Positions 35,970-54,143 are shown, numbered from the stretch's first letter. The stretch is 64,000 nt of DNA from an uncultured delta proteobacterium (GCA_963708295.1 CAVPSJ010000004.1:832001-896000); one strand, 5' to 3'. The notes: generated by a model from the sequence alone, not told the origin. Translations and numbers: made by a program.

Positions 35970-35986
35970 CATGTCATAAATTTCGT

Positions 35987-36026
35987 GCATTCCAACCGCT
36001 GAGTTTCGCGGTTGGAATGCTTTCTT
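35987..36026 (+). terminator. Stem-loop after the binding-protein gene (terminator or mRNA stabiliser)
   Basis: 13-bp stem GCATTCCAACCGC/GCGGTTGGAATGC followed by TTTCTT. Confidence 0.65.
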
Positions 36027-36052
36027 ATTGAGCTGTAAAGATCGAACGGATT

Positions 36053-36378: not shown

Positions 36379-36449
36379 AGGTCCTATTGCTTCCGGCCGG
36401 GACGGGTCAGGTCAAAAGACGCCCATCGGCCACAACACGCAAGTAAGAC

Positions 36450-37181
36450 ATGAAATTGCTTGAAGTAGACAACGTTTCGAAAGCGTTTGGCGGTGTGCTT
36501 GCTGTCAATCGGGTGAGCTTTCATCTCGACCAGGGAGAGGTGCTGGGACTGATTGGTCCTAACGGAGCGGGCAAAAGCACGCTGTTCAACATCATATCGG
36601 GGATTTTCAAGCCGAACACAGGTACGGTGAGGTTCAATAATAAAGATATCACCGGGATGGCTCCTTATAAGATATGCGAGAGCGGGATAGCCCGGACCTT
36701 CCAGTTGGTTAAACCTTTCAGCCGGTTAACTTCACTGGAAAACGTGATGGTAGGAAGAGCTTACGGCAGCCATCCGGCTCGGGATACAAGAGAGGCCCGC
36801 ATCGAATCGGAGCAGATATTGGCTTTTACCCGCTTGGCAAACAAACAGACAAGGACGGCGGGCATGCTTAGCCTGGTGGACCGGAAGCGGTTGGAAATTG
36901 CCCGAGCCCTGGCCACGAAACCTAAGTTGCTCTTACTGGATGAGATGATGGCAGGTTTGAACCCGGCAGAGCTGGATGATGCGATTGCGCTGGTGAAGTC
37001 AATCAGAGATTCGGGCATCAGCCTCATCGTTGTTGAACATGTCATGAAAGTGATCATGGGGATTTCGGACAGGGTCATTGTGCTGAAGACCGGCGAGAAA
37101 ATAGCGGATGGCACCCCTCAGGAGATTGTCTCCAATCGCGAGGTTGTGAAGGCCTATTTAGGAGGAGAAGTCTCGTGTTAA
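36450..37181 (+). CDS. ABC transporter ATP-binding protein (LivG-like)
   Basis: GPNGAGKST, GIARTFQ, LLLLDE. Confidence 0.93.
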   Translation: MKLLEVDNVSKAFGGVLAVNRVSFHLDQGEVLGLIGPNGAGKSTLFNIISGIFKPNTGTVRFNNKDITGMAPYKICESGIARTFQLVKPFSRLTSLENVMVGRAYGSHPARDTREARIESEQILAFTRLANKQTRTAGMLSLVDRKRLEIARALATKPKLLLLDEMMAGLNPAELDDAIALVKSIRDSGISLIVVEHVMKVIMGISDRVIVLKTGEKIADGTPQEIVSNREVVKAYLGGEVSC

Positions 37182-37885
37182 AGATTACCCATATCGATGT
37201 CTATTATGGTGACCTTCAGGCATTATGGGATGTCTCGCTGACGATCGGAGAAGGGGAAATCGTGACGCTGGTTGGTTCCAATGGCGCGGGCAAGAGCACC
37301 CTCATGAATACCATCTCAGGGTTACTCAAAATTCGAGCCGGATCCATTGAATTTCGTGGCATTCGCCTCGACAGCTTGCCTGCACACTCAATTGTAGAAC
37401 ATGGCATTTCCATGGTTCCTGAGGGAAGAAGAATATTCCCGCAGATGAGTGTCCTGGAGAACCTGGAGATGGGTGCTTCGATTCACGCAGCGCGCAAGGT
37501 AAGGCAAAAAACGCTCAAAGAGATCTATGAGGTCTTTCCGATTTTGGGAGAGAGAGCCAAACAAAGGGCGGGGACGCTGAGCGGGGGAGAGCAACAGATG
37601 TTAGCCATCGGCAGGGCCCTGATGTCACAACCGAAGGGTCTCTTAATCGATGAAATGTCCCTGGGTTTGAGCCCTCTTGTGGTGCAAGAACTCTCCCGTG
37701 TTATTCAGAGCATCAATAAGGCAAACCATTTGACCATTTTCGTTGTCGAGCAGGATGTGCCACTGGCTTTATCGATGGCTCACCGTGGTTATGTGATAGA
37801 AAATGGGCGTATTATAGACCAGGGTGACGCGAAGTCTCTGTTATGCAGTGCACGTATTAAAGAGGCCTATTTGGGGGCGGCGTAG
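37175..37885 (+). CDS. ABC transporter ATP-binding protein (LivF-like)
   Basis: GSNGAGKST, VPEGRRIF, LSGGEQQML. Confidence 0.93.
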   Translation: MLKITHIDVYYGDLQALWDVSLTIGEGEIVTLVGSNGAGKSTLMNTISGLLKIRAGSIEFRGIRLDSLPAHSIVEHGISMVPEGRRIFPQMSVLENLEMGASIHAARKVRQKTLKEIYEVFPILGERAKQRAGTLSGGEQQMLAIGRALMSQPKGLLIDEMSLGLSPLVVQELSRVIQSINKANHLTIFVVEQDVPLALSMAHRGYVIENGRIIDQGDAKSLLCSARIKEAYLGAA

Positions 37886-37904
37886 AGAAGAGGGAAGTGG
37901 GTCT

Positions 37905-38792
37905 ATGGAAATCGTATTCCAGACGATGGCCAATGGTTTGTTGGTCGGGGCTCTCTACGGGCTGGTCGCGCTTGGGTTTGCTCTGCTGATGGGCGTCATG
38001 AAATTCCTCAATACGGCTCATGGGACATTCATCATCCTGGGTGGCTATCTGAGCTACTGGCTCCTGGAGCTTTGGGGGATTGACCCATTCCTTTCGCTAC
38101 CCTTGGTCGTCATGGCCATGTTCCTCATCGGGATCGTCTTCTATAAGCTGGCTCTTTCGCCCTTGCTGAAATTACCGAACATCGGAATGCGAATTAACAC
38201 TTCCATGCTGATTACCTTTGGCTCGATCTGGGTCCTGGATAACACGATGACCTTGCTCTGGACCCCTGATGTCCGAAGTATCATGACCTCCTACACCGGA
38301 CAGACCTTAAAGCTTCTCGGCGTTAGATTCAGCCTCACCGGTCTCGGCGGAGTGGGCGTTGCTGTTCTGGTGGCATTGGCGCTCTATTTTATTCTCAGCG
38401 GGACTTATTTTGGCAAACATATCCGGGCGGCGACGCAGGATGCTGTCGCAGCCAGCCTCTGTGGAATCAACGTTCAACGTACCTATTTATTTTCATGTGG
38501 CATAGCGATCGCGCTGGCAGGCGTGGCCGGGATGGTGGTCGTTTCAAGTTATTCCATCAGCTCGACCGCCGGCATCGGTTGGCTATCCTCAGCGTTTGTG
38601 GTCATGGTTCTTGCGGGTGAAGGAAACATCAATGCCATTATTCCTGCCGGTATGCTCCTGGGGCTGATTGAGTCGGCAGGTCTTCTGGTGGTGGGGGTTT
38701 CGTACCGCCAGGCGATCGCGCTGATCGTCTTTATCATCGTCCTCATGATCAAACCCCAGGGATTGTTCGCCAAAAAGGAGTATGGATCCTGA
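37905..38792 (+). CDS. ABC transporter permease (LivH-like)
   Basis: GALYGLVALG, NTAHG, FGKHIRA..QD, KPQGLF. Confidence 0.92.
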   Translation: MEIVFQTMANGLLVGALYGLVALGFALLMGVMKFLNTAHGTFIILGGYLSYWLLELWGIDPFLSLPLVVMAMFLIGIVFYKLALSPLLKLPNIGMRINTSMLITFGSIWVLDNTMTLLWTPDVRSIMTSYTGQTLKLLGVRFSLTGLGGVGVAVLVALALYFILSGTYFGKHIRAATQDAVAASLCGINVQRTYLFSCGIAIALAGVAGMVVVSSYSISSTAGIGWLSSAFVVMVLAGEGNINAIIPAGMLLGLIESAGLLVVGVSYRQAIALIVFIIVLMIKPQGLFAKKEYGS

Positions 38793-39727
38793 TGAATTGG
38801 AAGAAACTGTCCATCCTCGGGGTTTTGGTCATGGTGTTTCTGATTCCTCCTTTGATTTGGGATATCGGAACCAGTGTCCTGAATCTGCTGATCATGCTGT
38901 TTATCTATATCATCCTCGCTCAGAGCTGGAACCTGATGGGAGGCTATACAGGACAGATTAATCTGGGTCTGGCTGCTTTCTTTGGTTGCGGGACGCTGGT
39001 GACGCATTTCATCTGGAAGGCTGGGGTCCCCTTTTATCTGGCGATGACAGCGGGTGGAGTCGCTGCCATGTTGTTGGCCGTGGTGATTGGTTTGCCTACC
39101 CTCAGGTTGAAAGGGATGTATTTTGGCATAGGGACGTTCGCATTGGCAGAGGTGTGCCGAATCGTGGTGGGGAGCACTTTCCATCGGATGCTTAAGATGC
39201 CCAGTTCCTATGTTGCTTCCTATAGCCTTGTTTCCCGTTATTACGTTGCCTTTGTTGTAGCCGTCCTGGCAATCGTCATCGTTTACCTGGTGACCCATTC
39301 AAAGCTGGGACTGGGAATGGTTGCGGTTCGGGACGACGAAACAGCAGCCCAGGTGACCGGTGTCAACACGTTCAAATGTAAGGTGTTGGCATTATTCATC
39401 AGCGCACTGTTGGCCGGACTGGCCGGGGGCGTCTTCGCTTACTTGCGGCTTTCCTTCCATTACATCTTCATGATGTTCAGTCCTGTCTGGACGTTTGAAC
39501 CCCTCATGGCAGCGATCATCGGCGGTGCCGGCACATTAGCGGGACCGATTATAGGCAGCATTTTCCTGGTCATCCTTTCAGAGATCTTTGCGCTTAAATT
39601 GGGAGAAACACATCTCATCATATTCGGGTTTCTGTTCATTCTGGTCGTGATGTACTTCCCCTCCGGACTGGTCGGGTCTATAGACCAAATTCGGCAGAAG
39701 ATAAGTGGTGTTGGCCGGAAGAGCTAA
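38792..39727 (+). CDS. ABC transporter permease (LivM-like)
   Basis: SWNLMGGYTGQINLG, LRLKGMYF, AVRDDE, IIGGAGT..GP. Confidence 0.92.
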   Translation: MNWKKLSILGVLVMVFLIPPLIWDIGTSVLNLLIMLFIYIILAQSWNLMGGYTGQINLGLAAFFGCGTLVTHFIWKAGVPFYLAMTAGGVAAMLLAVVIGLPTLRLKGMYFGIGTFALAEVCRIVVGSTFHRMLKMPSSYVASYSLVSRYYVAFVVAVLAIVIVYLVTHSKLGLGMVAVRDDETAAQVTGVNTFKCKVLALFISALLAGLAGGVFAYLRLSFHYIFMMFSPVWTFEPLMAAIIGGAGTLAGPIIGSIFLVILSEIFALKLGETHLIIFGFLFILVVMYFPSGLVGSIDQIRQKISGVGRKS

Positions 39728-39777
39728 TCTGAAAGGAAAACGGATTGTTTTCTTACGACAACTCAAGGAGGGTTGAA

Positions 39778-40692
39778 GTGATTCCAAAGAAAAAGATTAT
39801 TGGCTTATCCTGTGGAAGAGTGAACGGCAACAGTGAAATTCTTTTAAAGGAAGCTGTGATGGGAGCGGAGGAGATCGGAGTCCAATCAGAAATCATCCGC
39901 GCCATGGAGCTGAGAGTCAAACACTGCACGGGTTGTGAAGCCTGCTCCATGGCCATGGCCCGGGGAAAGGAATCAAGATGCGCGATCAAAGACGATGATG
40001 TCGAGTGGATTCTGGAAAAGGTCCTGGTGGAGGATTGCGGTCTCATCGTCAGTACCCCGGTCTATCATTTAAGGTCCAACGGATGTTTTGAGATTATTAA
40101 TGAGCGAATGCTTCCAACGATGTTCAGGAATCCGGGGATTCTGAAAAAGACAAGAGTAGGAGCGATCATTTCTGTCGGCGGGGGGGAGCCCGAATGGACC
40201 CCCTTAGGGCTCACATCGGCCAATATCTTTGTCCAACATACCCGAAAACTGGTCGATCAAATCCAGGTGAATTTCGTGGGACGCCCGGGCGCTGTTTTGG
40301 CGAGACCGGAGGTCCTCCAGCGGGCCAGGGAATTGGGACGAAGAGTTGCCAGGGCAATGAAGGTGCCGATTGAAGAAGTGAAATACTTGGGCGAAGACAA
40401 AGACGTTTCTTGCCCGGTCTGCCACTGCAACGTCGTGCAGGTGTTTGAGAAATTGCCGGATGTCTACTGCCCGGTATGCTGGGTCCATGGTGTCCTATCT
40501 GCCGAGGGAGGCAAAATGAAGGTGAAGTGGAACGAAGAGGATGCAAAGCATCCCCGGTTTTCCGAAAAAGGGGTTTTCACGCATTTGGAATTGATCAAAA
40601 ACCTTCAGAAAAAATTCTTTACAGAAGATCAGGACAAAGTCAAAGCACTGATGCCAAAATATACAGCGTACGGCAACATTGTAAAACCCTAA
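39778..40692 (+). CDS. Extended iron-sulfur flavoprotein with a C-terminal CxxC..CxxC domain
   Basis: GLSCGR..GNSE, CTGCEAC...C, CPVCHC...CPVCW. Confidence 0.85.
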   Translation: MIPKKKIIGLSCGRVNGNSEILLKEAVMGAEEIGVQSEIIRAMELRVKHCTGCEACSMAMARGKESRCAIKDDDVEWILEKVLVEDCGLIVSTPVYHLRSNGCFEIINERMLPTMFRNPGILKKTRVGAIISVGGGEPEWTPLGLTSANIFVQHTRKLVDQIQVNFVGRPGAVLARPEVLQRARELGRRVARAMKVPIEEVKYLGEDKDVSCPVCHCNVVQVFEKLPDVYCPVCWVHGVLSAEGGKMKVKWNEEDAKHPRFSEKGVFTHLELIKNLQKKFFTEDQDKVKALMPKYTAYGNIVKP

Positions 40693-40793: not shown

Positions 40794-40843
40794 AAGTAGT
40801 ATAATTATGTCTTCTCAAAGATGGACTTATTTGTAGCTGTTAA

Positions 40844-42151
40844 ATGATATCGAAAGGTCCTCCCCAGGTCAGAATAGCCCTTCGCAATTGTGGTGAGATC
40901 GACCCCGGAAATATCGATCACTATATCGGCCGCGGCGGGTACAGCGGACTGGTCAGGGCTCTGAAGATGGTTCCTGAAGAGGTGATCGAAGAGGTGGGTA
41001 GGTCCGGGCTCCGGGAGCGAGGCGGGGACGGATTTCCCGCGGGAAAGAAGTGGCGCCTCAGTTTCAATGCACCAGGCAGTGAGAAGATTGTGATCTGCAA
41101 TGCCGCAGAAGGCGACCCGAATTCTCTCACGGCCCGGGCCCTGCTGGAAGGAGACCCCCATTCCGTCTTAGAGGGAATGGGCATTGGTGCCTATGCCATT
41201 GGAGCCGGCCTGGGGTGGATCTATATTAATGCTGAATACGGATTGGCGATTAACAGACTCAGGACTGCTTTGAAGCAAGCGGAGGATCATAGGTTTCTAG
41301 GGGATCATCTTCTGGATTCCAACATCCCTTTCCGCATCGAGGTTAAAGAAGGGACGGGCAAACTCGCCTGCGGCGACGAGACTTTCCTGATCAACGCCAT
41401 AGAAGGTAAGCAAACCATGCCTTTCGTTTGTTCTTCTCACCCTCCCGTATCCGGGCTGGGGGGTAAGCCAACCCTCATCCATCAGGCAGAGACCTGGGCC
41501 CATGTCTCTGCTGTCATGGAGAAGGGTGCAGAATGGTACGCTGGCTTCGGCACTGAGCAAAGCAGGGGGACGAAAGTTTGGAGTTTATCGGGAAAGGTGA
41601 TGCATTCCGGGTTGATCGAGGTCCCCATGGGCATACCTCTCCGTGAAATTGTTTATGACATCGGAGGAGGCCTCCCGGATGGCAAGTCTCTAAAAGCAAT
41701 CCGGGTCGGCGGTTCCACAGGCGGTTATCTACCGCCAAGTTCCCTGGACCTGCCCATTGACGAGGAGCATCTGTCCGCTGCCGGGACCCTCATGGGGTCC
41801 GGAAACATTCTGGTGATCGATAGCGATGCCTGCATCGTTGATCAAGCGAAGTGCTCTCTCTCCTTCATCCGGAGTGAATCGTGCGGCAAGTGCGTTTTTT
41901 GCCGTGAAGGTACGATGCAAATGGCAGAAATTCTGGCGGACATTACCGAAGGCAGGGGAAAAGCTCATGATATCGACCTGCTGTTAGAGTTGGGGGAAGG
42001 TCTTAAGTTGGGGGCTCAATGCGATCTGGGCAGGACGGCAGCTTATCCGGCCCTCACCGCGATCCGGTATTTTCGCGAGGAACTTGAAGCGCATATCAAG
42101 GATAGAAAGTGTCAGGCGCGCGTCTGCAAAACCCTTGAGCCGTCGACGTAG
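40844..42151 (+). CDS. NuoF/HydB-like FMN, [4Fe-4S] subunit
   Basis: SGLRERGGDGFP.GKKW, CNAAEGDP, LEGDPH, ESCGKCVFCREG...CDLG. Confidence 0.9.
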   Translation: MISKGPPQVRIALRNCGEIDPGNIDHYIGRGGYSGLVRALKMVPEEVIEEVGRSGLRERGGDGFPAGKKWRLSFNAPGSEKIVICNAAEGDPNSLTARALLEGDPHSVLEGMGIGAYAIGAGLGWIYINAEYGLAINRLRTALKQAEDHRFLGDHLLDSNIPFRIEVKEGTGKLACGDETFLINAIEGKQTMPFVCSSHPPVSGLGGKPTLIHQAETWAHVSAVMEKGAEWYAGFGTEQSRGTKVWSLSGKVMHSGLIEVPMGIPLREIVYDIGGGLPDGKSLKAIRVGGSTGGYLPPSSLDLPIDEEHLSAAGTLMGSGNILVIDSDACIVDQAKCSLSFIRSESCGKCVFCREGTMQMAEILADITEGRGKAHDIDLLLELGEGLKLGAQCDLGRTAAYPALTAIRYFREELEAHIKDRKCQARVCKTLEPST

Positions 42152-42236: not shown

Positions 42237-44032
42237 TTGCAGGATGTGAAGGACGGTCGAGATGAGCGGATCGAGGTCCTCTTTCGTAAAGCGGCACCCA
42301 TCGACGTCCCGGAAGCCCGTTATCCGGGCTTCAAACCTGGTACGACCGTTCTCCCTAAAGGGTTTGTCCAAAAGAAAGGAGCACTCCCGCTCCCCTGCGA
42401 CATTATCTTTGAACGAGACGTTGCTGTGGCGCTCCGCGATGGCACGATCATCTATACGGATATCTTTCGTCCCGTCGGTGGTACCCACCTCCCGGCCATC
42501 GTCGCCTGGAGTCCCTACGGAAAGGAGGGAGGCTTGACGCTCCTCGACGACTTTCCTTTTCGGGCCGGTGTGGCCAAGAATGCAGTCTCGGAACTGCAGA
42601 AGTGGGAAGGTCCTGATCCCGCCTACTGGTGTTCCCATGGTTACGCGGTCGTGAATCCCGATGCTCGCGGTGCCTTTAGTTCGAACGGAGACATCCACTT
42701 CTGGGGGAGCCAAGAGGGCCGGGACGGCACCGATATGATTGAGTGGGTGGCATCTCAGGAGTGGAGCAACGGCAAGGTTGGGCTGTCGGGCAACTCGTGG
42801 TTGGCCATTGCCCAGTGGTTTATCGCAGCAGAGAGACCTCCCCATCTGGCCGCCATTGCTCCCTGGGAGGGGTGGTCCGATGCCTACCGAGAAGATGTGG
42901 GTCGTGGCGGTGTGCAGGATTTCGGATTTTGTGAACGCATTGTCTCGAAGATGCGCGGGAAGAATCGTGTCGAGGACGTCCCCACCATGATCCAGAAATA
43001 TCCCCTCATGAACGCCTGCTGGGAGGACAAAATCGCCAAGTTAGAGAATATTGGCATTCCTGCCTACGTTGTCGCAAGCTGGACCGGCATGATGCACGTA
43101 CACGGGACCCTCGACAGTTTCCAGCGGATTCCCTCCAAAGAAAAATGGCTTCGCGTCCATAACACTCAGGAATGGCCCGACTATTACGACCCTAAGTACA
43201 CGGAAGATCTACGTCGATTCTTCGACCGGTACCTGAAGGGTATCAAGAACGGCTGGGAGAATACCTCGCGGGTGCGACTGTCGGTTCTCGACCCCGGCGG
43301 CGCTGATGAAATCAATCGTCCTGAGAACGAATTTCCCCTGGCTCGGACACAGTACAAGAGTCTCTACCTCGACGGACGCTCGGGGACGCTCTCTTCCAAT
43401 CCGGTGACAGATGAGACTTTGGTGCGCTATGCGGCTGACGATGGCAAAGGAAAAGCTGCCTTCACTATCAGGTTCGATGAGGATACGGAACTGACCGGAT
43501 ACATGAAGTTGCGCCTCTGGGTGGAGGCAATCGGGTCAAACGACATGGACCTATTCGTCAAGGTCCAGAAGCTCAGCAAAGGAGGCAAGGTCCTTTCCAG
43601 CCCGGTCATTGTCCCGCCAATCCCGTTGCCCGGACGATGGTCAATCTCCTGTGGTCGTTCGGAGTCCGGAAGCTGTCCTTTCTCTTCTTTACCGGTCCTT
43701 CCGGGAGATTGCGGGTCTCCCACCGTGCACTCGATGAGGCACGGTCGACCCCATCAGAACCTTATCTGACACACCGCGCTGAAGAGTTTTTGAGTCCCGG
43801 GCAGATTGTTCCGGTGGAGATTGGAATATGGCCTGTGGGCATGCGCTGGCATGCCGGCGAGCAATTGCGGCTTATGATCGCAGGATACAACCTGACGCCG
43901 ATGCCAATGGCCGGGATCAAGCCGCCTAAGCTGCGCAACAAGGGTGAGCACATCATCCATGCGGGTGGTAAGTACGATTCACACCTTCTGGTGCCGGTGA
44001 TTTCGAAGGGCCAGTCTTTGGGAGGAGGTTGA
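42237..44032 (+). CDS. CocE/NonD family hydrolase (frameshift near 43635)
   Basis: LRDG..IYTDIFRP, WSPYGK, WSNGKVGLSGNSW, PPHLAAIAPWEG, GRLRVSHR, YDSHLLVP. Confidence 0.9.
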
Positions 44033-44412
44033 TTGGCAATAGGCCTGGGCGTAGACATCATCACCCTCAGCAGAATGAAAGACGTATTGGACACCGGCGG
44101 CAAGGTGTTTCTGGACAAGGTATTTCACGCCGTGGGAGCAGGAGCGGGCTGAAGCCCACTCCCGACCGCGTGGCCTATCTGGCAATGATCTTTGCTGCCA
44201 AAGAAGCCATCTTTAAAACGTTTGGAATTGGCTGGGAGACAGGCGTCCAGTTCAAGGAAATAGAGGTCCGGGACGGGGAACATGGAGAGCCGATCCCCGT
44301 TCTCACGGGAAGATTTGCTGAGCTTGCATCCGAACGTGATGTCTCCCGTGTGCTTTTGAGCCTCTCGTATGATGGCGACTATGCCGTGGCAGTAGCAACC
44401 TTATCAAAATGA
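44033..44412 (+). CDS. acpS: Holo-ACP synthase (4'-phosphopantetheinyl transferase; frameshift near 44130)
   Basis: IGLGVDIITLSRM in one frame; FAAKEAIFK, GEP.P, LSLSYD..YAVA in the next. Confidence 0.88.
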
Positions 44413-44477
44413 GAGATTTCTGAAAAGGCCAGAAATCTCTGGTTACAGCGATTATGAAACGATTACAACGAAGCAAC

Positions 44478-44578
44478 CCCTCCCTTCCTCGTAACTCCCC
44501 CCGCCCCCTCTCTTATTCTAAGAGGGGATCATTTGATTCCCCCCTTAGATTAAGGGGGGATTTAGGGGGGTTATATTG
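44478..44578. repeat. REP-like double hairpin (CCCCTCT...AGAGGGG / CCCCCTT...AAGGGGG)
   Basis: Nested inverted repeats read directly. Confidence 0.55.
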
Positions 44579-44644
44579 GGAGGTGAGGTGGGATTAATCA
44601 TCTTAGAGAAACTGTGAGTATCCCTTCAACCAGGAGAACTTGAA

Positions 44645-45646
44645 ATGCCTACGGATGTCATGGAGCAATTGCAGGTTAAGGCCAAGGCGAATCCTCAAAG
44701 GGTTGTATTTTCTGAAGCTGATGAGGAGAAGATCCTTCGTGCGGCGCGTCAGATAAAAGATATGGGGATCGCGTATCCTATACTCGTCGGGGAACCCGAG
44801 GCCGTATCCCTCTTGGCCGGAAACATCGGGGTGTCGCTTGATGGGATCACGGTGATTGACCACACTGATGCAGGAAAGGTCGAGCAGTTCGCCAGCGGGT
44901 ATGCGAAGATCAATCCGGACTTTCCGGCCTCCGCTATCAAGCGCATGCTAAGGGACCCGCTTTATTTCGCGGCCATGATGGTGAAATTAGGCGAGGCGGA
45001 CTGCATGGTGGCAGGACTGAGCCATACGACGGGAGAGGTGATCATGGCCAGTGAGATGATCATCGGATTGCAGGAAGGCATCTCCACGGTCTCAAGTACG
45101 GGCATTCTTTCCATCCCGGGATATGAGGGGCTGGAAGGGAACCTGCTGGGGATTGCTGACTGCGCTGTCTGTCCGGCGCCCGATTCTAAGGAGCTGGCCG
45201 ACATCGCCATCTCGACGGCCGACACCTTGCAGAGACTGCTGGGCTGGGAGCCGCGCGTGGCCCTGTTGTCCTTTTCAACAAAGGGCAGCGCAAGCCACGA
45301 GCGCGTTGACACAGTACTGCAGGCCCTGGACATGGTGCGCGAGCGGAGGCCGGAGCTGCTCATTGACGGCGAGCTTCAACTGGATTCCGCGATCGTCCCG
45401 GAGGTGGCAGCCAGGAAGGTGAAGGGAGGAAGCCCGGTGGCCGGCAAGGCCAACATCCTGATCTTCCCGGATCTCAACGCAGGCAACATCGGGGTGAAAC
45501 TTGTCCAGCGGTTTGCCAAGGCGGTGGCTTATGGGCCGCTTCTGCAGGGCTTCGCCAAGCCGGTAAGCGACCTGTCCCGTGGCGCGCCTGTGGAGGAGAT
45601 TGTAGGGGCGACCACGATGGTGGCAGTACGAGCACAAAATAAATAG
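44645..45646 (+). CDS. pta: Phosphate acetyl/butyryltransferase family protein
   Basis: ADCAVCPAP, VALLSFSTKGSA, DGELQLDSA, FPDLNAGNIGVK, GPLLQG..KPVSDLSRG. Confidence 0.9.
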   Translation: MPTDVMEQLQVKAKANPQRVVFSEADEEKILRAARQIKDMGIAYPILVGEPEAVSLLAGNIGVSLDGITVIDHTDAGKVEQFASGYAKINPDFPASAIKRMLRDPLYFAAMMVKLGEADCMVAGLSHTTGEVIMASEMIIGLQEGISTVSSTGILSIPGYEGLEGNLLGIADCAVCPAPDSKELADIAISTADTLQRLLGWEPRVALLSFSTKGSASHERVDTVLQALDMVRERRPELLIDGELQLDSAIVPEVAARKVKGGSPVAGKANILIFPDLNAGNIGVKLVQRFAKAVAYGPLLQGFAKPVSDLSRGAPVEEIVGATTMVAVRAQNK

Positions 45647-45651
45647 GGCTC

Positions 45652-45800
45652 GAATATCGAAGCACGAAATTCGAAACAAATCCGAATTTCGAATGTTTCA
45701 AATTCTAAACATCGTAGTACCTGAAAAAACTGATTTCGGTCAGTTAGAATTCGAATTTTGGTCATTGTTTCGGATTTCGATATTCGAGTTTCGGATTTTA
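45652..45800. repeat. Heptamer-periodic long hairpin element
   Basis: ATCGAAGCACGAAATTCGAAACAAATCCGAA ... GTTTCGGATTTCGATATTCGAGTTTCGGATTT. Confidence 0.65.
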
Positions 45801-45902
45801 ATTCAATGGTCGCTCGCTTACCCGATGTTACATCTTTGCGCCTGGCGCAACCCTGCCTGATGGTTAAGGACCAGGTTGGTCATGGAGGGAAAGGTAACTC
45901 TT

Positions 45903-47012
45903 GTGGATAAGAAATACAGACTTCTTGCGATCAACCCGGGCTCCACCTCAACCAAGATCGCGCTCTTTGAAAACGATACGGAAATTTTCTCTGCCAACGT
46001 CGCTCATGACGCAGCCAGGCTCAAAGAGTTTCGCGAGATCAGCGACCAGTTTCCGTATCGTAAGGAGACCATACTGAGTGAGCTGGCTAAAAAGAACATC
46101 TCCTTGAAAGGAATAGACGCCTTTGTCGGACGGGGAGGCGGGCTCGTCGGCCTGGAAGGAGGAACCTATACGATCAATGAGACCTTGCTGCATCATGCCA
46201 GAATTGGCTTTACCGTGAAACACCCGGCCACGCTCGGCAGTCAGCTGGCCCATGACTTTGCGTTGACCTATGGCGGAAAAGCCTTCGTCGTCAATCCGCC
46301 CGACGTCGATGAATTTCAACTTGTGGCACGAGTCAGCGGGCTCCACGATGTCCCCCGCGAGAGCAGGGGCCACCCTCTCAACCAGAAAGAAGTCGGAATC
46401 CGCTACGCCGCAGAGATCGGCAAGCGTTACGAGGATCTCAACCTGATCATATCCCACATCGGCGGCGGCGTAACGGTGACGGCTCACCAGAAGGGTCGTA
46501 TGGTCGATTCGACCGATGTGATCAATGGCGATGGTCCCATGGCTGCCACGCGCGCAGGCGCGATCCCGGCTGTGGCCATCATCAGGATGTGTTATTCGGG
46601 AAAATATACGGAAAAAGAGATGTATGACCGCATCACCAAGAATGGCGGTCTGGTCGATCATCTCGGCACCGCCGACGTCCGCGAGATACAGGAACGCATC
46701 AAAAACGGCGATGCCTATGCAAAACTCATCTACGACGCCATGATCTATCAGATTGGAAAGAGCATCGGCGCTTATGCAACGGTCTTAAGAGGTGAAGTGG
46801 ATGCCATTCTACTGACCGGCGGCATCGCTCACGATGCCTATCTGGTCGAGAGGATCACCGATATGGTCAAGTACATCGCTCCGGTCAAGGTCTACGCAGG
46901 TGAGTTCGAGATGGAAGCCCTGGCTGCAGGCGCTCTCAGGGTGCTGACCGGTCAGGAACAGCCCAAGACCTATACCGGAGTACCGGTATGGAATGGTTTT
47001 GACGAGAGATGA
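45903..47012 (+). CDS. buk: Butyrate kinase (start may be 45876-45903)
   Basis: AINPGSTSTKIA, GRGG, HPLNQK, HIGGG, ILLTGGIA, GEFEMEALA. Confidence 0.93.
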   Translation: MDKKYRLLAINPGSTSTKIALFENDTEIFSANVAHDAARLKEFREISDQFPYRKETILSELAKKNISLKGIDAFVGRGGGLVGLEGGTYTINETLLHHARIGFTVKHPATLGSQLAHDFALTYGGKAFVVNPPDVDEFQLVARVSGLHDVPRESRGHPLNQKEVGIRYAAEIGKRYEDLNLIISHIGGGVTVTAHQKGRMVDSTDVINGDGPMAATRAGAIPAVAIIRMCYSGKYTEKEMYDRITKNGGLVDHLGTADVREIQERIKNGDAYAKLIYDAMIYQIGKSIGAYATVLRGEVDAILLTGGIAHDAYLVERITDMVKYIAPVKVYAGEFEMEALAAGALRVLTGQEQPKTYTGVPVWNGFDER

Positions 47013-47013
47013 A

Positions 47014-47138
47014 CAGGTTGCTGAAAAATGGCCATCTACTGCGTTTCCCTCATCCTTCGTCGTTGCAGCGTACAGGCAAGTACGCCTCGCTCCTCAGGAT
47101 TTCGGGAGCCTTGCATCTGGCCCTTTTTGAGCAACCTG
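47014..47138. mobile_element. MITE-like element, 125 bp
   Basis: Terminal inverted repeats CAGGTTGCTGAAAAA / TTTTTGAGCAACCTG. Confidence 0.65.
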
Positions 47139-47278
47139 GAGGAGATTCCCTTTTCAGGAGCCTGGACGAAATACGCGAATGATGATGAATTTCACGAATA
47201 GAACCGGTTCGTGTTATTCGTTGTCATTCGTGCCATTTGAGCCTATTTTCTAAATCATAGAAAAGGAGTAAAAAAACA

Positions 47279-47527
47279 ATGGGATTAAGAGAAGAGGTAT
47301 TGGAGAAAATCATTCAACGAGCTGCGGTACTCTTCAAGAAAGACCCCGGCGAATTAAGTCCAGACACGAAATGGGTGGAGGACCTCAAGGCCAAATCGGT
47401 CAATTACGTTCAGGTCATCGCCATATTAGAGGATGCATTTGACGTCCAGATTAATTTCATGGAGTTCAGAAGGAAAAAGACTTTGGGCGAGGCCGCTGAA
47501 TTCGTCGCCCAACTCTGCGGGGGCTGA
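47279..47527 (+). CDS. Acyl carrier protein with an atypical attachment motif
   Basis: 82 aa, acidic; WVEDLKAKSVNYVQVIAILEDAFDVQI..TLGEA aligns with the ACP pattern DLGADSLD. Confidence 0.85.
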   Translation: MGLREEVLEKIIQRAAVLFKKDPGELSPDTKWVEDLKAKSVNYVQVIAILEDAFDVQINFMEFRRKKTLGEAAEFVAQLCGG

Positions 47528-47599
47528 TCAGAACAAGAATCAGAAATTTAATTGAGATAAGAAAATAATCGATACAAGAGATAAAATGGGAGGATGGCC

Positions 47600-49369
47600 A
47601 TGGCTGAAACGAAAAGAAAAAAAGTAATGTTCGGCAATGAGGAAATCGATGCAGTCTACAGGGAAACAAGAAGACCAGTTCCGCCCCAGAAGAAAGAATC
47701 GAAGGCCAAACAGGAGGAGAACTGGGACGGACTCGAAGAAAAATCTCTAGAGGGATCCGGGTTTGGAGTCTGTCCTGATCTCAACCGCCGCACCTATCTT
47801 GCTGAAGACGGCATTATCTGCGAGCAGGACGTCCCCGTGACCCTGCGGGACGGCGTGGTGATCTACACCGACATTTACCGTCCCGTGGAACAGACAAATA
47901 TTCCTGCCATCGTCTCATGGAGTTATTTCGGCAAACGTCCGGGCGATGGCTTCGACGAATGGCAGATCATCGGGGTTCCGCCGGGGACTGTTTCCCGGAT
48001 GGCCAAGTTCGAATCTCCCGATCCCGCCTACTGGTGTCGCCATGGCTATGCGATCGCCAACGCGGACCCCCGCGGCATTGGCCATTCAGAGGGTGATGTA
48101 TGCTTTTTCGGCACGCAAGACGGACGTGACTGCTATGACTTCATCGAATGGCTTGCAACCCAGTACTGGTGCAACGGCAAGATCGGGATGGGCGGCAACT
48201 CGGGTGTGGCCATGACCCACTGGCGAGTGGCTGCAGAGCAGCCCCCTCACCTTGCCTGCATCGCCCCTTGGGAAGGCACGGGAGACCTGTATCGCGAGTC
48301 CCTTTATGAAGGAGGTATCCCGGCGCTTGGTTTCTGCGACTTTATTGTGGGTTCCCTGGTGGGCAACGGATATGTGGACGACGCCGCTGCTATGGCCCTG
48401 GAGCACCCTTTTCTGGACGCCTATTGGGAAGACAAAATCCCGAGGTGGGAAAAGATCAGGATTCCAACCTATACCACAGTCTGCTGGAACCATTTTCACC
48501 TGCGCGGTTCTATGGAAGGTTTCAGGAGGATCCGTTCCACGAAGAAGTGGCTCCGGGCACACAGGGAGTTTGAGTGGCCGGATACCTATTCCACCTTCGG
48601 CCTCGAAGATCTGAAAGGGTTCTACGATCGCTATCTGAAAGACATCCGAAACGGCTGGGAGCTTACGCCGAGGGTCCGCCTTGAGATCATGGATGCCTAT
48701 GATTTTAATTATCAGGTCAACCGTCCCGAAAAGGAGTTCCCCCTTGCCCGAACCCAGTACAAGAAGCTCTACCTCGACGCCGCCAAGGGCGCTCTCTCCT
48801 TTGATCCCGTTGCCAAGGAATCAAAGGTCAGCTACGAGGCCGAGACCGGGTCAACGACCTTCGCCATCAAATTGACCGAAGACACGGAGATTACCGGCTA
48901 CATGAAGCTCCGCCTCTGGGTTGAGGCCGAGGGCAATGATGATATGGACCTCTTTATTGCAATCCGGAAGCTCGATGAAAAAGGCAACTGGCTGCCGACA
49001 AACGTGTTGGGAGAACCCCATCCGGGAGCATGGGGAAAGATGAGGGTATCGCGGCGCGAGCTCGATCAGAAGCTGTCCACGGATTTTCAGCCGATCCAGG
49101 CCCATCGCAAGGATGAAAAGCTGAAACCCGGTGAAATCGTTCCCGTGGATATTGAGATATGGCCCCACAGCAGGATTTGGCACAAAGGCCAGCAGTTGCA
49201 AGTCCTTGTATCAGGGCATTACGTTCGCGAAGGCTGGTTTGAGCCTTTCTCATGGGAGCTTAACAATAAAGGTAAGCATGTGATCCACTCAGGGGGGAAA
49301 TATGATTCGTATCTCCAGATACCTGTCATCCCTCCGAGATATCAGGCCGGCGATTATGTTTACAGGTAA
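47600..49369 (+). CDS. CocE/NonD family hydrolase
   Basis: LRDG..IYTDIYRP, DPRGIGHSEG, WCNGKIGMGGNSG, PPHLACIAPWEG, YDSYLQIP. Confidence 0.92.
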   Translation: MAETKRKKVMFGNEEIDAVYRETRRPVPPQKKESKAKQEENWDGLEEKSLEGSGFGVCPDLNRRTYLAEDGIICEQDVPVTLRDGVVIYTDIYRPVEQTNIPAIVSWSYFGKRPGDGFDEWQIIGVPPGTVSRMAKFESPDPAYWCRHGYAIANADPRGIGHSEGDVCFFGTQDGRDCYDFIEWLATQYWCNGKIGMGGNSGVAMTHWRVAAEQPPHLACIAPWEGTGDLYRESLYEGGIPALGFCDFIVGSLVGNGYVDDAAAMALEHPFLDAYWEDKIPRWEKIRIPTYTTVCWNHFHLRGSMEGFRRIRSTKKWLRAHREFEWPDTYSTFGLEDLKGFYDRYLKDIRNGWELTPRVRLEIMDAYDFNYQVNRPEKEFPLARTQYKKLYLDAAKGALSFDPVAKESKVSYEAETGSTTFAIKLTEDTEITGYMKLRLWVEAEGNDDMDLFIAIRKLDEKGNWLPTNVLGEPHPGAWGKMRVSRRELDQKLSTDFQPIQAHRKDEKLKPGEIVPVDIEIWPHSRIWHKGQQLQVLVSGHYVREGWFEPFSWELNNKGKHVIHSGGKYDSYLQIPVIPPRYQAGDYVYR

Positions 49370-49481: not shown

Positions 49482-50455
49482 ATGAAAGTTCTCGGACTGA
49501 CCTGCGGCAGGAAGATGAGCAACACGGAGATACTCGTCAAAGAAGCGCTTATGGGCGCGGAAGAGGCGGGTGCAAAGGTGGAGATCGTGCGTCTGATGGA
49601 CCTGAATATCAGGCCGTGCACGGGGTGCAACTCCTGCGTGATCGATCTTTTCGAAAAAGCCGGCTCAGGGGAATGCGTCATCAAGAATGACGATTTCAAG
49701 TTCATCGACGACAAAATCCATGACTGCGACGGGCTGATCCTGGGTTCCCCGGTTTATGAGAAGGCCCCGCAGGGTTTGCTGAAGGTCCTGAACGACAGGA
49801 TGGGGCCGTCCCATGATCTGGCATTCAGAATCATTGCGAAGAAGATCAGGGAGGAGAAAGGCATTACCAAAGGCAAAGGACCGGACGAGAGGTCGTTCAA
49901 ACCGAGAGTGGCATCGCTCTTTGCCGTCGGAGGCAGCGACTGGACGACTCTGGCGCTTCCCATGCTGCAGATATTCGCTCTTCCGATGAACATGCTGGTT
50001 GTGGATCAGCATGTATTCAACTGGACGGCTTTACCCGCTATCGTGGCATTGAGGCCTGAAATGCTCGAGAGGGCGAGAAGGTCAGGGCGTCATGTGGCCG
50101 AGACCTTGAAGAAACCGATTGAAGAGGCAAAGTATATTGGCGATCCCGGTAGGTGTCCCGTATGCCATTCAAGTGTACTGGAGGTCGGAAAGACAACGGA
50201 ACCGGTGATTTGCGCCGTCTGCGGTGTAAAGGGCAACTTTGAAAACGAAAGGTGACGATTATGTAGCTGGAGGTCACCGACGAGGCAAGGGCCCTTTCGA
50301 ACGTTCTCCTTTCGGGTAAATTCCACCATGGCGATGATATGAAGGCTGTTTCGCTGAAGCCTGACCCACGGATGGCCGAGATCCCTGCGTTGATCGAGAA
50401 ATACAAATCGTATTTAACGTACTCCAGGCCGGATCGAACGGCGACGGAAAAGTAA
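49482..50455 (+). CDS. Extended iron-sulfur flavoprotein (frameshifts near 50235-50270)
   Basis: GLTCGRKMSNTE, CTGCNSC...C, GSPVY, CPVCH...CAVCG; paralog-like tail in the shifted frame. Confidence 0.85.
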
Positions 50456-50529: not shown

Positions 50530-52872
50530 ATGAAGAAAAATTTGCTTATCCTGGTGATGGGCCTTTGCCTGATCCTCATGTCCGCCATGTTGGCTCCTGT
50601 GCCCGCTTTCGCCGAGAAAACCAAGGCCGGACAAGCAAAAGAGGCAATTAAGGGGAAAAGGTTATTAGAGGGGGTCTTCGGCGGTCCCGTGCAAGGGCTT
50701 GATTACAAAACACCGACTATTTCCGGCATAACCAACGAAAAGGGTGAGTTCAAATACCGCCTGGGGGAAACAGTCACCTTCTCTATCGGCGGACTGGTGC
50801 TCGGGGCTTCACCCGCTCGCAATTTGATTACCCCGGCCCACTTGGCGATTGAGGTCGCCGGGGATGCCATGAAATTACGTAATCAGAAGGTAACCAACAT
50901 TGCCAGACTGATTCAAAGTCTGGACTCGGATAGCAATCTGGAAAACGGCATCACCCTGACGGATGATGCAAAGAATACCGTTCAGAAATACCGTTATCGG
51001 ATAAACTTCGACCAGCCTGAACAGGTATTTGCGCAAAACCCCGATGTGTCTGCGCTTTTTGCTGAACTGAAACTTCCGTTGCGAAACCCGGCCGAAGCGA
51101 GAAACCACCTGCGCCGTACGCTCATGGGCATTATGAAGTTGACCGATGTGAGAATCCCCACCCGTGACGGCTCTTACCTTCTGGCCGACGTTTACCGCCC
51201 GATTAAAGATGGCAAATACCCGGTGCTGATGACGCTGGGCGCCTACGGGAAGGCTTTCACTTTCGGATGTATCTGCAATCCGGCTGACTTGTTGAAGTTC
51301 GAACAAATCGAGGACAACTATTTTAACGGAATTGCGCCCGCTCCCTCCACCTTCACCGACCCCAAAGTAAAGGGACATCCCGTGGTTCCTCACGTGGCTG
51401 AGCACTTCGAACGCGCCAACAGTGTGGACTGGGTCCCCAATGGCTATGTCGTCGTGCATGTTGATGAGAGGGGTACCTGTAACAGCCCGGGAACATTCGA
51501 GCAGTTCAGCCTCCAGGAAGCTAATGACTACTATGACGCTATAGAATGGGCGGGAACGCAGAAATGGAGCAACGGTAATGTGGGCTTATGGGGGGCGTCC
51601 TACTATGCCATGACGCAATACACTGTTGCCCAGCTTCAGCCGCCGCATCTGAAGGCCATGGTGCCGATTGGCGGCGACCTCAATTCATACCGGGACTACA
51701 TTTATTCGGGCGGCGGCCTTTATAATCCGTTCAACTTCGTCGCCCGAAACTCCTGTGGCGAATGGAAGGGCGTGGACTGGGTCCCTATCGCCCTGGCCAA
51801 TCCCTTTGATGACCCTGCAATATACGGCGCGTCAGGCACACTTTGCGTGAGCGCCAACCCGGACAGGATTACTGTGCCGTTCTGGAGTGCCATGGGCACG
51901 GAAGGAACCATCCACACCCGAGGCAGCAGCGATGCATTCGTCCAGGCTGCCTCCAAGCATAAGAAATTGCTCATACTCTCCGAACCGGGCATTCATTTCT
52001 GGTCCTATGCCAAGGAGTTTTTCGAAAGCTACAAGGCATTCTTCGACTACTGGCTCAAGGGTGTAAAGAATGACATTATGAAAGAGCCGCCGGTACGGAT
52101 GATGGTTCGCACGGGTTGGACCGGTTACTACTGGCAATACGAGAACGAATGGCCTGTTGCCCGGACCAGGTATACTAAGTACTATCTTGAGGCCATTCCG
52201 TCGAGTTTCCCCGGCAATGATAAGAGGAAAGAATTCTTGCGCCTCGGACCCGGCGTACCGGCTTCGGAGGCCAAAACCACCTATTCCGCGGATGTGAAAT
52301 TCGGGGTTGACTCTCCCTGGTCTTACGGTGTTTCTTTCGTCACAGAACCTCTGAAAGAAGATACGCTGATAGCGGGCTATATCAAGGCGGTGCTTTGGGT
52401 ATCTTCCAGCTCTCATGACATGCAGATTCACGCTTACGTCAGGGTCATGGACGAGAACAACCAGGAAGTCTCCTTCGCAACGGGCAACCCTGGGATGAAT
52501 AGACTCTACCCGGTAGGACAGGGCGCTCTTAAAGTCTCCCATCGGAAACTGGACCCGGCCAGGTCCACGGTCTACCGACCCTATCATACTCACCAGAAGG
52601 CGGACTACCAGCCCTTGATTCCGGGGGAAATTGTTGAGGCCCAGGTTGAGCTCTGGCCGACGACTGCCCTGATAAGAAAAGGCTGGCGCATCAGACTTGA
52701 CGTGCAACCAGCTACCGGTGAGGGTTTCATGGCACCGCTCATCGACCCGCAGGATAGTAAGTACCAGGCAGGCGCGTCCAATACCATTTATACGGGTCCG
52801 GAGCATCCCTCTTACGTGCAACTTCCTTTAGTGCCGGCAAATCTTGGAAAGCAAACAAGGGCCCGCGATTGA
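50530..52872 (+). CDS. Secreted CocE/NonD hydrolase with an extra N-terminal domain
   Basis: Signal peptide; TRDG..LADVYRP, GAYGK, WSNGNVGLWGASYY, PPHLKAMVP. Confidence 0.9.
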   Translation: MKKNLLILVMGLCLILMSAMLAPVPAFAEKTKAGQAKEAIKGKRLLEGVFGGPVQGLDYKTPTISGITNEKGEFKYRLGETVTFSIGGLVLGASPARNLITPAHLAIEVAGDAMKLRNQKVTNIARLIQSLDSDSNLENGITLTDDAKNTVQKYRYRINFDQPEQVFAQNPDVSALFAELKLPLRNPAEARNHLRRTLMGIMKLTDVRIPTRDGSYLLADVYRPIKDGKYPVLMTLGAYGKAFTFGCICNPADLLKFEQIEDNYFNGIAPAPSTFTDPKVKGHPVVPHVAEHFERANSVDWVPNGYVVVHVDERGTCNSPGTFEQFSLQEANDYYDAIEWAGTQKWSNGNVGLWGASYYAMTQYTVAQLQPPHLKAMVPIGGDLNSYRDYIYSGGGLYNPFNFVARNSCGEWKGVDWVPIALANPFDDPAIYGASGTLCVSANPDRITVPFWSAMGTEGTIHTRGSSDAFVQAASKHKKLLILSEPGIHFWSYAKEFFESYKAFFDYWLKGVKNDIMKEPPVRMMVRTGWTGYYWQYENEWPVARTRYTKYYLEAIPSSFPGNDKRKEFLRLGPGVPASEAKTTYSADVKFGVDSPWSYGVSFVTEPLKEDTLIAGYIKAVLWVSSSSHDMQIHAYVRVMDENNQEVSFATGNPGMNRLYPVGQGALKVSHRKLDPARSTVYRPYHTHQKADYQPLIPGEIVEAQVELWPTTALIRKGWRIRLDVQPATGEGFMAPLIDPQDSKYQAGASNTIYTGPEHPSYVQLPLVPANLGKQTRARD

Positions 52873-53060: not shown

Positions 53061-53149
53061 TCCTATTTCTGTCGCCGAAGCAATCAAATAGTTGGATAAA
53101 CTGTATTTGGATCATTACGACATTGGTTGGACAGAGGAGGATATCTCCA

Positions 53150-54109
53150 ATGAAAAGTTTGGTCGTCTATTACTCTCAAACGGGAAACACCAAAAAGGTC
53201 GCTCGTGCAATTCACAAAGGGATGAGCCCACTGCTGGAGCAATGCGATATCGCCACGGTCAAGGAGATCAAGCCTCAGGATGTGAGCAAGTATGATTTGA
53301 TCGGCCTGGGCAGTCCGGTATGGGATGGCGCAGAGGCCCCCAATGTCAGACGCTTCACAGAAAACATGCTGAATCAGCAGGGAAGGCACATCTTCTCCTT
53401 TAATACCCACGGCGTCATGCCGGAACACTATTTCCCCACCGTGGTCAGGAGGTTGAAGGGGAAGGGTTTCACGGTCATTGGGATGCGGGACTGGTACGGG
53501 GACGGCATTTTTCAGCTTGCCCCCAGTCCCTATTTTACCCACGGACATCCGGACGAGATTGACCTGAAAGAGGCGGAGGATTTTGGGAGAGAAATGGTGG
53601 AGGTCAGTCGTAGGATATCGGCCGGGGAGGTCGTTCTCATTCCTCCTGTGCCCGCGCGTGTGTTTACGGAACAATTGCATGTCCTGACGGAGTTCTACCG
53701 GTCCGGCCATAACCCGCACGGCCTCATTAAATATGATTCCGAAAAGTGTGCCTATCCGAAATGCCGCCTCTGTATGGATCACTGCCTGATGGATTACATC
53801 GACCTGTCGGCTTCGCCAAGGGTCTTCGGGTCTAACAAAACAGAGTGTGACATGTGGCTTGGTTGCACCTTTTGCGAAATGATCTGCCCCACCGGCGCCA
53901 TATCCTGCGACTGGGAGGGATTCCAACGGGATTTCGGGGGAAAGATCGGTGTGGTTCTTGGCGGCAATCCACTTGCGAATGCTGCAGAAGAAGCCATTGC
54001 TTCAGGTCGATTGAGGATGCTGGTGCCCAAGGAAGAGGTGAGGTGGGATAGGCCCTATTTCAAGGTTCACAATAAACACCCTCGCTTCAAGATACCTAAG
54101 GAAAAGTGA
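53150..54109 (+). CDS. Flavodoxin + 4Fe-4S ferredoxin fusion protein
   Basis: YYSQTGNTKKVA, GHPDE.DL..A..FG, C..PKCRLC..HC and C..GCTFCE.ICP. Confidence 0.85.
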   Translation: MKSLVVYYSQTGNTKKVARAIHKGMSPLLEQCDIATVKEIKPQDVSKYDLIGLGSPVWDGAEAPNVRRFTENMLNQQGRHIFSFNTHGVMPEHYFPTVVRRLKGKGFTVIGMRDWYGDGIFQLAPSPYFTHGHPDEIDLKEAEDFGREMVEVSRRISAGEVVLIPPVPARVFTEQLHVLTEFYRSGHNPHGLIKYDSEKCAYPKCRLCMDHCLMDYIDLSASPRVFGSNKTECDMWLGCTFCEMICPTGAISCDWEGFQRDFGGKIGVVLGGNPLANAAEEAIASGRLRMLVPKEEVRWDRPYFKVHNKHPRFKIPKEK

Positions 54110-54143
54110 CATTGCGGGGTGAACTTTCAGAGAGGAGGTGTCT

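Follow-up and report, generated by a model that had tools for sequence, protein, structure and literature searches.

The genes acpS, pta, buk, acp and cocE2 lie in the same direction within a 64,000-nucleotide stretch of DNA from an uncultured delta proteobacterium (GCA_963708295.1 CAVPSJ010000004.1:832001-896000), which is called the window here and from whose first letter all positions are counted. Comparative sequence evidence indicates that acpS-pta-buk-acp-cocE is a conserved, horizontally mobile module. Tentatively, and with somewhat more doubt than assurance, this module may be read as a self-contained relay for substrate-level phosphorylation that works without coenzyme A (CoA) inside an island of anaerobic polyphenol catabolism. 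The CocE-type hydrolase would acylate an unusual acyl carrier protein (ACP), the Pta-like enzyme would phosphorolyse the product, and the Buk-type kinase would make ATP. The gene content, its conservation and co-transfer, the carrier motif, the loss of arginines at the CoA site and the polyphenol context are observed directly; all steps of the relay are what we infer.

The first step of such a relay would be the conversion of the apo-carrier into its holo form by the dedicated phosphopantetheinyl transferase (PPTase) AcpS. The CocE-type serine hydrolase would then form an acyl-enzyme from a polyphenol-derived substrate. This could be an energy-rich ester, aryl or anomeric, or else an acyl-phloroglucinol or dihydrochalcone cleaved at its C-C bond, the step for which phloretin hydrolase would employ water. 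The hydrolase would hand the acyl group to the phosphopantetheine thiol of the carrier and not to water, phosphorolysis of the acyl-S-carrier by the Pta-like enzyme would yield an acyl phosphate, and the kinase would convert it into ATP and a free acid. Under this scheme, one closed cycle needs each of the five genes and can be completed with these alone. In a wider sense, thiolytic cleavage of polyphenol C-C or ester bonds onto a charge-altered carrier, coupled to a CoA-abandoning Pta and to ATP formation by Buk, would be a previously undescribed form of energy conservation, spread horizontally among wetland, sediment and gut anaerobes; this broader proposal is possible and rather doubtful. 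No description of the module was found in a literature search, which left aside supplementary files, a possible site of gene-cluster tables.

The carrier protein is the most distinctive component. The original prediction described its motif as DLKAKSVN, with the attachment serine kept, the preceding Asp replaced by Lys and the following LD by VN, and this reading is borne out by the sequence. The same holds for the gene order acpS-pta-buk-acp, with a PPTase three genes upstream and Pta and Buk in between, which the open reading frames (ORFs) and profiles confirm. The carrier scores above the cut-off of the Pfam PP-binding family PF00550 (28.5 vs 20.8 bits) and below all NCBIfam ACP cut-offs (best 45.4 bits vs a cut-off of 66). 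Its AlphaFold model (pLDDT 93.6) has helices at residues 3-19, 40-54, 60-64 and 69-79, and Ser40 is therefore the first residue of the predicted helix II. Moreover, in a Foldseek comparison of the model with the PDB, the first 48 listed ranks were all ACPs or ACP-containing complexes, at TM values of about 0.7-0.84. The predicted structure thus has the look of a genuine four-helix ACP fold with the serine opening helix II.

The motif is not peculiar to this genome. Relatives of the carrier number 285 in the database, and the motif was counted in the 82-aa members (n=118) of the 120 best: D35 is present in 115, L36 in 118, K37 in 100, A38 in 114, K39 in 117, S40 in 118, V41 in 115 and N42 in 117. 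Additionally, one genome per species was searched with two carrier peptides; this gave 30 loci, the gene content of which was read by tblastn with the window proteins and an intact AcpS. AKSVN is kept in all 30. Because the motif is maintained across the 118 relatives and the 30 loci, it is neither chance nor a sequencing error; the latter possibility, which the original prediction had left standing, is ruled out by K39, S40 and N42 in 117-118 of 118 relatives. A DLKAKSVN-type motif defines a carrier family.

The source genome has a separate housekeeping ACP, which reads DLGADSLD and carries a net charge of about -16, compared with -2 for the module carrier. Like housekeeping AcpP/AcpS, the module combines a four-helix carrier whose serine starts helix II with a group I AcpS about 125 aa long. 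It differs in having K-S-V-N for D-S-L-D and Gln (Q45) for Glu41, in its weaker charge, and in a PPTase that is a second, linked copy; by motif, helix-II acidity and NCBIfam score, the module carrier is not a housekeeping AcpP-type protein. The canonical helix-II acids Asp35, Asp38 and Glu41 (E. coli/B. subtilis numbering) are taken here to correspond to Lys39, Asn42 and Gln45. A plain duplication of the ACP/AcpS of fatty acid synthesis was considered and dropped, the locus having a catabolic context and no Fab genes.

The contact of AcpS Arg14 with ACP Asp35 and Asp38 orients Ser36 for transfer, as a passage of PMC3447402 describes. Such a contact bears on the predicted orthogonal carrier/PPTase pair, a claim that stands in part. 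In its favour are the second AcpS-type gene that adjoins the module in 21/30 loci, the separate housekeeping AcpS and ACP of the source genome, and the charge-altered helix II of the carrier. Strict orthogonality is opposed by Arg14, kept in 20/20 module AcpS copies with an N-terminus, by the loci without AcpS discussed below, and by the broken frame of acpS in this assembly. A charge swap in module AcpS that would match the altered carrier was also considered and makes a weak case: position 21 is basic in 3/3 housekeeping AcpS and non-basic in 18/20 module AcpS, but position 16 is basic in 19/20, and Arg14 is constant.

As assembled, acpS spans three frames and is broken by two 1-base insertions, at about 44123 and at 44159/44160, a point that the original prediction overlooked. 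It can be read from a TTG start at 44033, through 14 codons in a second frame, to a remainder in the frame of the ORF 44029-44412; no whole-domain ACPS match lies in one open frame of the gene as assembled. The orthologous acpS is intact at 125 aa in three loci (L030, L028 and L037), and comparison with their DNA shows where the extra bases lie: one is a T within a run of T near 44123, and the other falls near 44159/44160. Wetland-metagenome contigs at least 90% alike were also compared (four runs from two studies); they represent relatives rather than this strain, as the share of sampled words present in any one run did not exceed 0.28. The base at 44159/44160 is omitted in contigs of 4/4 runs, and that at 44123 in contigs of two, the two whose contigs cover the position. 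Since both the orthologues and the related short-read contigs are without the extra bases, the two insertions are probably assembly errors.

At least six frame breaks occur within about 17 kb: two in acpS, one in CocE1, two in the FLR-like gene at 49482-50437 and one in NuoG-GltD. If they were real, the module would be decaying in its own genome and its carrier would never be armed. Their density would fit such decay, and so would the small repeat elements inserted in each of the module's three long intergenic spacers. Each break, however, is an indel of a single base; one falls within a run of T and another next to a run of C, and the comparisons just described speak against those of acpS. 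In contigs of 2/4 runs, a C is inserted behind 43616 in CocE1. Furthermore, the frame breaks of L030, the closest relative, fall in genes other than those affected in the source genome, as expected from random consensus errors, and pta, buk, acp and cocE2 are intact in the window. Decay is accordingly held to be very improbable. The pattern suggests consensus indel errors of a long-read assembly, and the assembly is taken to be of this kind because it comprises only 20 contigs in 4.95 Mb.

The second line of evidence comes from the Pta-like enzyme, which the original prediction proposed to be an acyl-ACP:phosphate transacylase. At E<=0.01 it matches only PTA_PTB and falls outside the PlsX/FA_synthesis family, and its likeness to PlsX would be one of functional logic, not of family membership. 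The catalytic D-L-S-R-G (Ser309/Arg310) is present in the window protein and in 21/22 module copies of at least 300 aa. The CoA site has changed. In an alignment to Methanosarcina thermophila Pta (1qzt), Arg87 is replaced by Asn in a shortened loop and Arg133 by Met. Among the 22 module copies, the Arg133 position holds Met in 14, Leu in seven, Ile in one and Arg in none, and there is no conserved basic residue at the Arg87 position. In four solved Ptas, Arg stands at the Arg133 position and a second Arg at the Arg87 position or, as in 1vmi, one residue away from it. The two residues lie at CoA site 2 of the M. thermophila enzyme, their mutation acts mainly by raising Km, and in the Porphyromonas gingivalis Pta structure the same site is filled by acetyl-CoA, according to passages of PMC6461089.

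Loss of Arg133 was traced further by a profile search of 1.84 billion representatives, of which the 150 best matches were examined. The catalytic Ser-Arg is kept in 150/150, and Arg at the Arg133 position is found in 72/150, with counts of 3, 11, 13, 14, 15 and 16 in successive rank bins of 25. As these counts rise from 3 to 16, the loss of Arg133 is concentrated in module-like Ptas, yet it is not unique to them. A Bacillus genome with a module copy also holds a canonical Pta with both arginines, and the two enzymes are 37% identical. The enzyme's habit of travelling with the carrier, its lost CoA-site-2 arginines and its intact DLSRG thus speak for the transacylase, and its passing of a phosphotransacetylase cut-off, treated below, speaks against it. 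The interpretation of the carrier and the Pta is plausible and partly supported by the sequence evidence.

The kinase and the hydrolase would complete the cycle. Buk passes the butyrate kinase equivalog cut-off. No second gene of the acetate/butyrate-kinase family was found in the source genome, and no PTA_PTB gene other than pta. Of all the genes, cocE2 shows the tightest linkage to acp, directly downstream of which it lies in most loci. Its product matches only Peptidase_S15 (profile positions 1-145 of 262) and PepX_C, and it does not belong to the phloretin hydrolase/DAPG hydrolase family PF18089. Ser203, in a G-N-S-G-V motif, and His323 are invariant in 23/23 sequences. The best solved relative, 3ib3/3iii, aligns at 336 bits over residues 73-579 and is presumably Staphylococcus aureus SACOL2612; this CocE/NonD hydrolase differs from CocE2 in being a structural-genomics entry.

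The conservation of the unit links these enzymes to one another. Within the 30 loci, Buk is found in 27, Pta in 25 (and partially in one more), CocE2 in 25 (and partially in one more) and AcpS in 21. Most loci that miss a member end close to acp (L040, L041 and L054); L042 is without Pta, and L044 and L048 have no CocE2 within reach. Two gene orders occur, acpS-pta-buk-acp-cocE and pta-buk-acpS-acp-cocE, with acpS usually directly upstream of pta or of acp. By record titles, the module is present in five phyla: Thermodesulfobacteriota/'delta', Chloroflexota (Dehalococcoidia/Chloroflexia), Acidobacteriota, one Pseudomonadota and one Bacillus. The module carrier is absent from 40 relatives of the source genome (14 of the same genus), which hold only housekeeping ACPs at 25-33% identity, and a Pta homologue was found in 0/40 at E<=1e-10. 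CocE2-like genes of 50-53% identity occur in two of these 40 genomes. Because the carrier and Pta are missing in the 40 relatives, and because Pta and the kinase are the sole members of their families in the source genome, the unit is gained and lost as a block.

Some loci depart from the compact arrangement. In the Syntrophobacterales locus L039 (6677-8774), a gene like ADP-forming acyl-CoA synthetases, read by eye and with a masked stretch inside, lies between pta and buk, which fits the context of the relay. L046 has about 2 kb between these two genes. In the acidobacterial loci L053 (9613-9969) and L047 (9092-9628), a conserved ORF of about 118 aa with no NCBIfam match stands between buk and acp, and there is no module AcpS at this position.

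Several observations weigh against the relay. Pta scores above the cut-off of the phosphotransacetylase model NF007233 (331.6 vs 310 bits) and just below that of TIGR00651 (306.8 vs 311.2), and it is the only Pta in 3/5 other module genomes checked; for these two reasons, its substrate could simply be acetyl-CoA or another acyl-CoA. Arg133 is also lost outside the module clade, 78/150 of the best representatives being without it. A predicted Pta-carrier complex from two alignments scored 0.01 against a mark of 0.32, which is evidence neither way. CoA-type enzymes, namely acyl-CoA ligases, a 3-hydroxyacyl-CoA dehydrogenase and a PaaK-like ligase, surround the module. Kinases of the Buk family are known to act on aliphatic acids of short chain, and for this reason an aromatic acyl phosphate would be an unusual substrate for Buk. 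The 23 CocE2 sequences have no invariant Asp between Ser203 and His323 that would complete a Ser-Asp-His triad. AcpS was not found in 9/30 loci, including untruncated acidobacterial loci with PPTases only elsewhere in the genome. The genome of L052 (G043) has no AcpS near the module and two PPTase matches elsewhere. No PPTase other than the module AcpS was found in the genome of L033 (G045). Finally, the source genome holds two DAPG-hydrolase (phloretin-hydrolase family) matches, a weak one of 23.8 bits at C4:902627-902848, 6.6 kb past the window end, and a stronger one of 56.8 bits at C4:295235-295690, so the module is not simply replacing Phy there. The idea of such a replacement gave a mixed result more generally: the other module genomes have 0/5 matches, but this is a weak blank, since controls also have 0/14.

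The same observations can be used to argue that Pta and Buk are an ordinary pair turning acyl-CoA into ATP, which would be fed, for example, with the acetyl-, acetoacetyl- or butyryl-CoA that fermentation of phloroglucinol or flavonoids yields and would merely be co-located with a separate carrier/hydrolase pair. The passing of one curated cut-off with all catalytic residues kept, the single Pta in most host genomes checked, and the CoA ligases and CoA-type dehydrogenases nearby would all be expected of such a pair. Moreover, phloroglucinol fermentation by Clostridium scatologenes induces acetate and butyrate kinases, as a passage of PMC10470551 reports. The lost CoA-site-2 arginines (Arg133 in 22/22), the order pta-buk-acp-cocE kept across phyla with acpS usually adjoining pta or acp, the absence of the whole unit in 40/40 relatives, and the canonical Pta that Bacillus keeps beside its module copy all tell against it. 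Taken together, an ordinary CoA pair is considered distinctly unlikely.

The relay would operate within a wider set of genes (Table 1). One long array of same-direction genes extends over 34770-60754 on the plus strand, from an ABC importer to a fumarate-reductase-type flavoprotein.

Table 1. Positions and supporting matches of the module genes and of their neighbours in the window.
Feature	Position	Strand	Basis or remark
LivK/G/F/H/M-type ABC uptake system	34770..39727	+	with Peripla_BP_6 binding protein
FLR-like flavoprotein (FMN_red family), paralogue 1	39745..40692	+	best PDB match 7D38, 128.7 bits
NuoF-like NADH-binding FMN/Fe-S subunit	40844..42151	+	profile matches
CocE1, paralogous CocE/NonD hydrolase	42237..44032	+	53% identical to CocE2; two frames, split near 43616-43700
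acpS, group I (AcpS-type) PPTase, putatively dedicated to the module	44033..44412	+	Pfam ACPS 36 bits, profile positions 40-111 only
Pta-like phosphate acyltransferase, proposed acyl-ACP:phosphate transacylase	44645..45646	+	PF01515 351 bits
buk, butyrate-kinase-family acyl kinase	45876..47012	+	NF002834 461.5 bits (cut-off 222), TIGR02707 435.9 bits (cut-off 289.1)
acp, non-canonical acyl carrier protein	47279..47527	+	82 aa, net charge -2
DLKAKSVN motif, residues 35-42 of acp	47381..47404	+	Ser40, presumed phosphopantetheine site, at 47396-47398
CocE2, CocE/NonD-family alpha/beta hydrolase, proposed acyl-transferring enzyme	47594..49369	+	TIGR00976 203.9 bits (cut-off 66.3)
FLR-like flavoprotein, paralogue 2	49482..50437	+	two frame changes near 50230-50267
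CocE3, more distant CocE/NonD hydrolase	50530..52872	+	34% identity to CocE2
EFR1-type flavodoxin + 4Fe-4S protein	53123..54109	+	profile matches
Tannase/feruloyl-esterase family protein	54138..55742	+	PF07519 311 bits
FLR-like flavoprotein, paralogue 3	55783..56745	+	best PDB match 7D38, 180.7 bits, full length
NuoG-N-terminal + GltD-like oxidoreductase	57007..59116	+	one gene of ~702 aa in relatives; split near 57920-57933
Soluble fumarate-reductase-type flavoprotein	59300..60754	+	PDB matches Fcc3, urocanate reductase

The neighbours in this array, among them the tannase-family protein, point to anaerobic polyphenol or flavonoid catabolism, a context that suits the relay, as do uptake systems of carboxylate type. 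Full-length homologues of FLR, putative flavone reductases, number three to four in the window; the 7D38 series is that of the flavone reductase FLR of Flavonifractor plautii, according to the data-availability statement of PMC7862272. For the flavoprotein at 59300-60754, the best family is the vinyl phenol reductase VprA, matched over its full length at 336.4 bits (NF053717), below the cut-off of 600. Accessory genes recur among the 30 loci: VprA-like flavoproteins in 16, FLR-like proteins in 16, NuoG-GltD in 14, NuoF in nine, LivM in seven and EFR1 in six. Related loci add a BaiCD/enoate-reductase-type Fe-S flavoenzyme (six loci), a SnoaL-like protein, an acyl-CoA ligase and TRAP transporters; in some, TRAP DctM replaces the ABC importer. 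VprA is reportedly treated, together with HcrB, in a review.

Related loci also contain SDR, cyclase, 3-hydroxyacyl dehydrogenase and BKACE genes, and these families form the set of the C. scatologenes phloroglucinol pathway, as part of PMC10470551 describes. The BKACE and cyclase genes of the source genome lie far from the window, and the phloroglucinol link accordingly rests on the other loci. Downstream, on the opposite strand, an SDR (61013-61819) and a PaaK-like phenylacetate-CoA ligase (61958-63166; 313 bits, below cut-off) were assigned in that order; both are further aromatic-acid genes.

The context is also open to a reversed reading of the pathway. Buk would phosphorylate an imported carboxylic acid, the Pta-like enzyme would load the acyl group onto the carrier as in FakAB/PlsX, the flavoproteins would reduce it or modify it in another way, and CocE2 would release it as a thioesterase or transfer it to an acceptor, which amounts to an ATP-dependent, CoA-free activation. 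This direction draws on the same signs as the relay that Pta and the carrier are coupled, and it explains Pta, Buk and the carrier equally well. Import systems of the carboxylate or amino-acid type would suit it, and ene-reductase-type flavoproteins (VprA-like, FLR-like and BaiCD-like) recur beside the module. In caffeate respiration and the bile-acid Bai pathway, moreover, thioester activation precedes reduction of the C=C bond, which favours such a direction. On the other hand, enzymes of the VprA, FLR and urocanate-reductase types act on free substrates and not on thioesters. If Pta and Buk ran backwards after the reduction, no hydrolase would be needed, yet CocE2 is the member most tightly linked to acp; with hydrolytic release, in turn, each turnover would consume one ATP, in anaerobes that are short of energy. 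The reversed direction is thus regarded as unlikely.

Further features were seen around the hydrolases and in the spacers. The hydrophobic N-terminus of CocE3 suggests export. Residues 25-159 of this protein have a weak match (27 bits, well under the cut-off) to the N-terminal region of SslE/AcfD lipoprotein metalloproteases. Just after CocE3, at 52922-53044, lies a relic of a CocE C-terminus with 64% identity to residues 561-602 of module-type CocE. Regarding the spacers, no Rfam match was found in 44380-47320. The acpS-pta spacer contains, at 44490-44600, a palindromic element with many runs of C and of G (CCCCCTTAGATTAAGGGGGG...), and ORF translations suggest a similar one at about 40700-40800. 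The pta-buk spacer holds a small element at 45649-45788 with 21-nt inverted terminal arms, 86% complementary and 98 nt apart, which looks like a miniature inverted-repeat transposable element (MITE) or repetitive extragenic palindromic (REP)-type insertion; at 45677-45772, related contigs skip 76-92 nt and the depth is in thousands. In the buk-acp spacer, a dispersed repeat of about 120 nt at 47020-47140 has 53 matches in the source genome and no Rfam match. Over 46906-47267, the summed contig depth is in thousands in four wetland metagenomes, and contigs of some relatives skip 221-243 nt.

If the relay exists, it would add an ATP-yielding step to the anaerobic breakdown of flavonoids and tannins. 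This would bear on the mobilisation of polyphenol carbon in anoxic peat and wetland soils, as well as on flavonoid turnover in the gut. Additionally, the module's Pta would be the first of its family to accept a carrier protein in place of CoA, and the carrier and PPTase of the module would form a naturally insulated pair of possible use in pathway engineering.

The proposed relay can be compared with several known systems, and its logic has precedents. Acyl-ACP and acyl phosphate are interconverted by PlsX together with FakAB, and Ptb-Buk couples a thioester to ATP formation. The logic of PlsX and FakA/FakB is the same as that proposed for the module, in that an acyl phosphate handled by a kinase is exchanged with a carrier thioester without CoA. 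PlsX belongs to another family, however, and serves lipid synthesis with the acidic housekeeping ACP, whereas the module combines Pta-type and Buk-type enzymes with a near-neutral K-S-V-N carrier in a catabolic context. Pta-Ack and Ptb-Buk share with the module their enzyme families, the catalytic Ser-Arg and the expected product, ATP from a thioester. They differ in using CoA thioesters, while the module Pta is without the Arg87/Arg133 contacts and is co-inherited with a carrier and a PPTase.

The gut FLR-CHI-EnoR-PHY pathway of Flavonifractor plautii and Eubacterium ramulus is related through the FLR homologues in the window and through the EnoR-type and phloroglucinol families in related loci, and the role proposed for the module would likewise lie at the cleavage of acyl-phloroglucinol. 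The phloretin hydrolase step of that pathway is hydrolytic and yields no ATP, and CocE2 is an S15/CocE-family protein and not a DAPG-hydrolase, although the source genome has DAPG-hydrolase-like genes as well. In glycine reductase, a protein-bound thioester is converted to acetyl phosphate and then used for ATP, and PhaZ cleaves polyhydroxybutyrate thiolytically. Both are precedents for what the relay would combine, namely phosphorolysis of a thioester or the use of a thiol for water by an alpha/beta hydrolase, but their proteins are unrelated to those of the module and work without a phosphopantetheinyl carrier.

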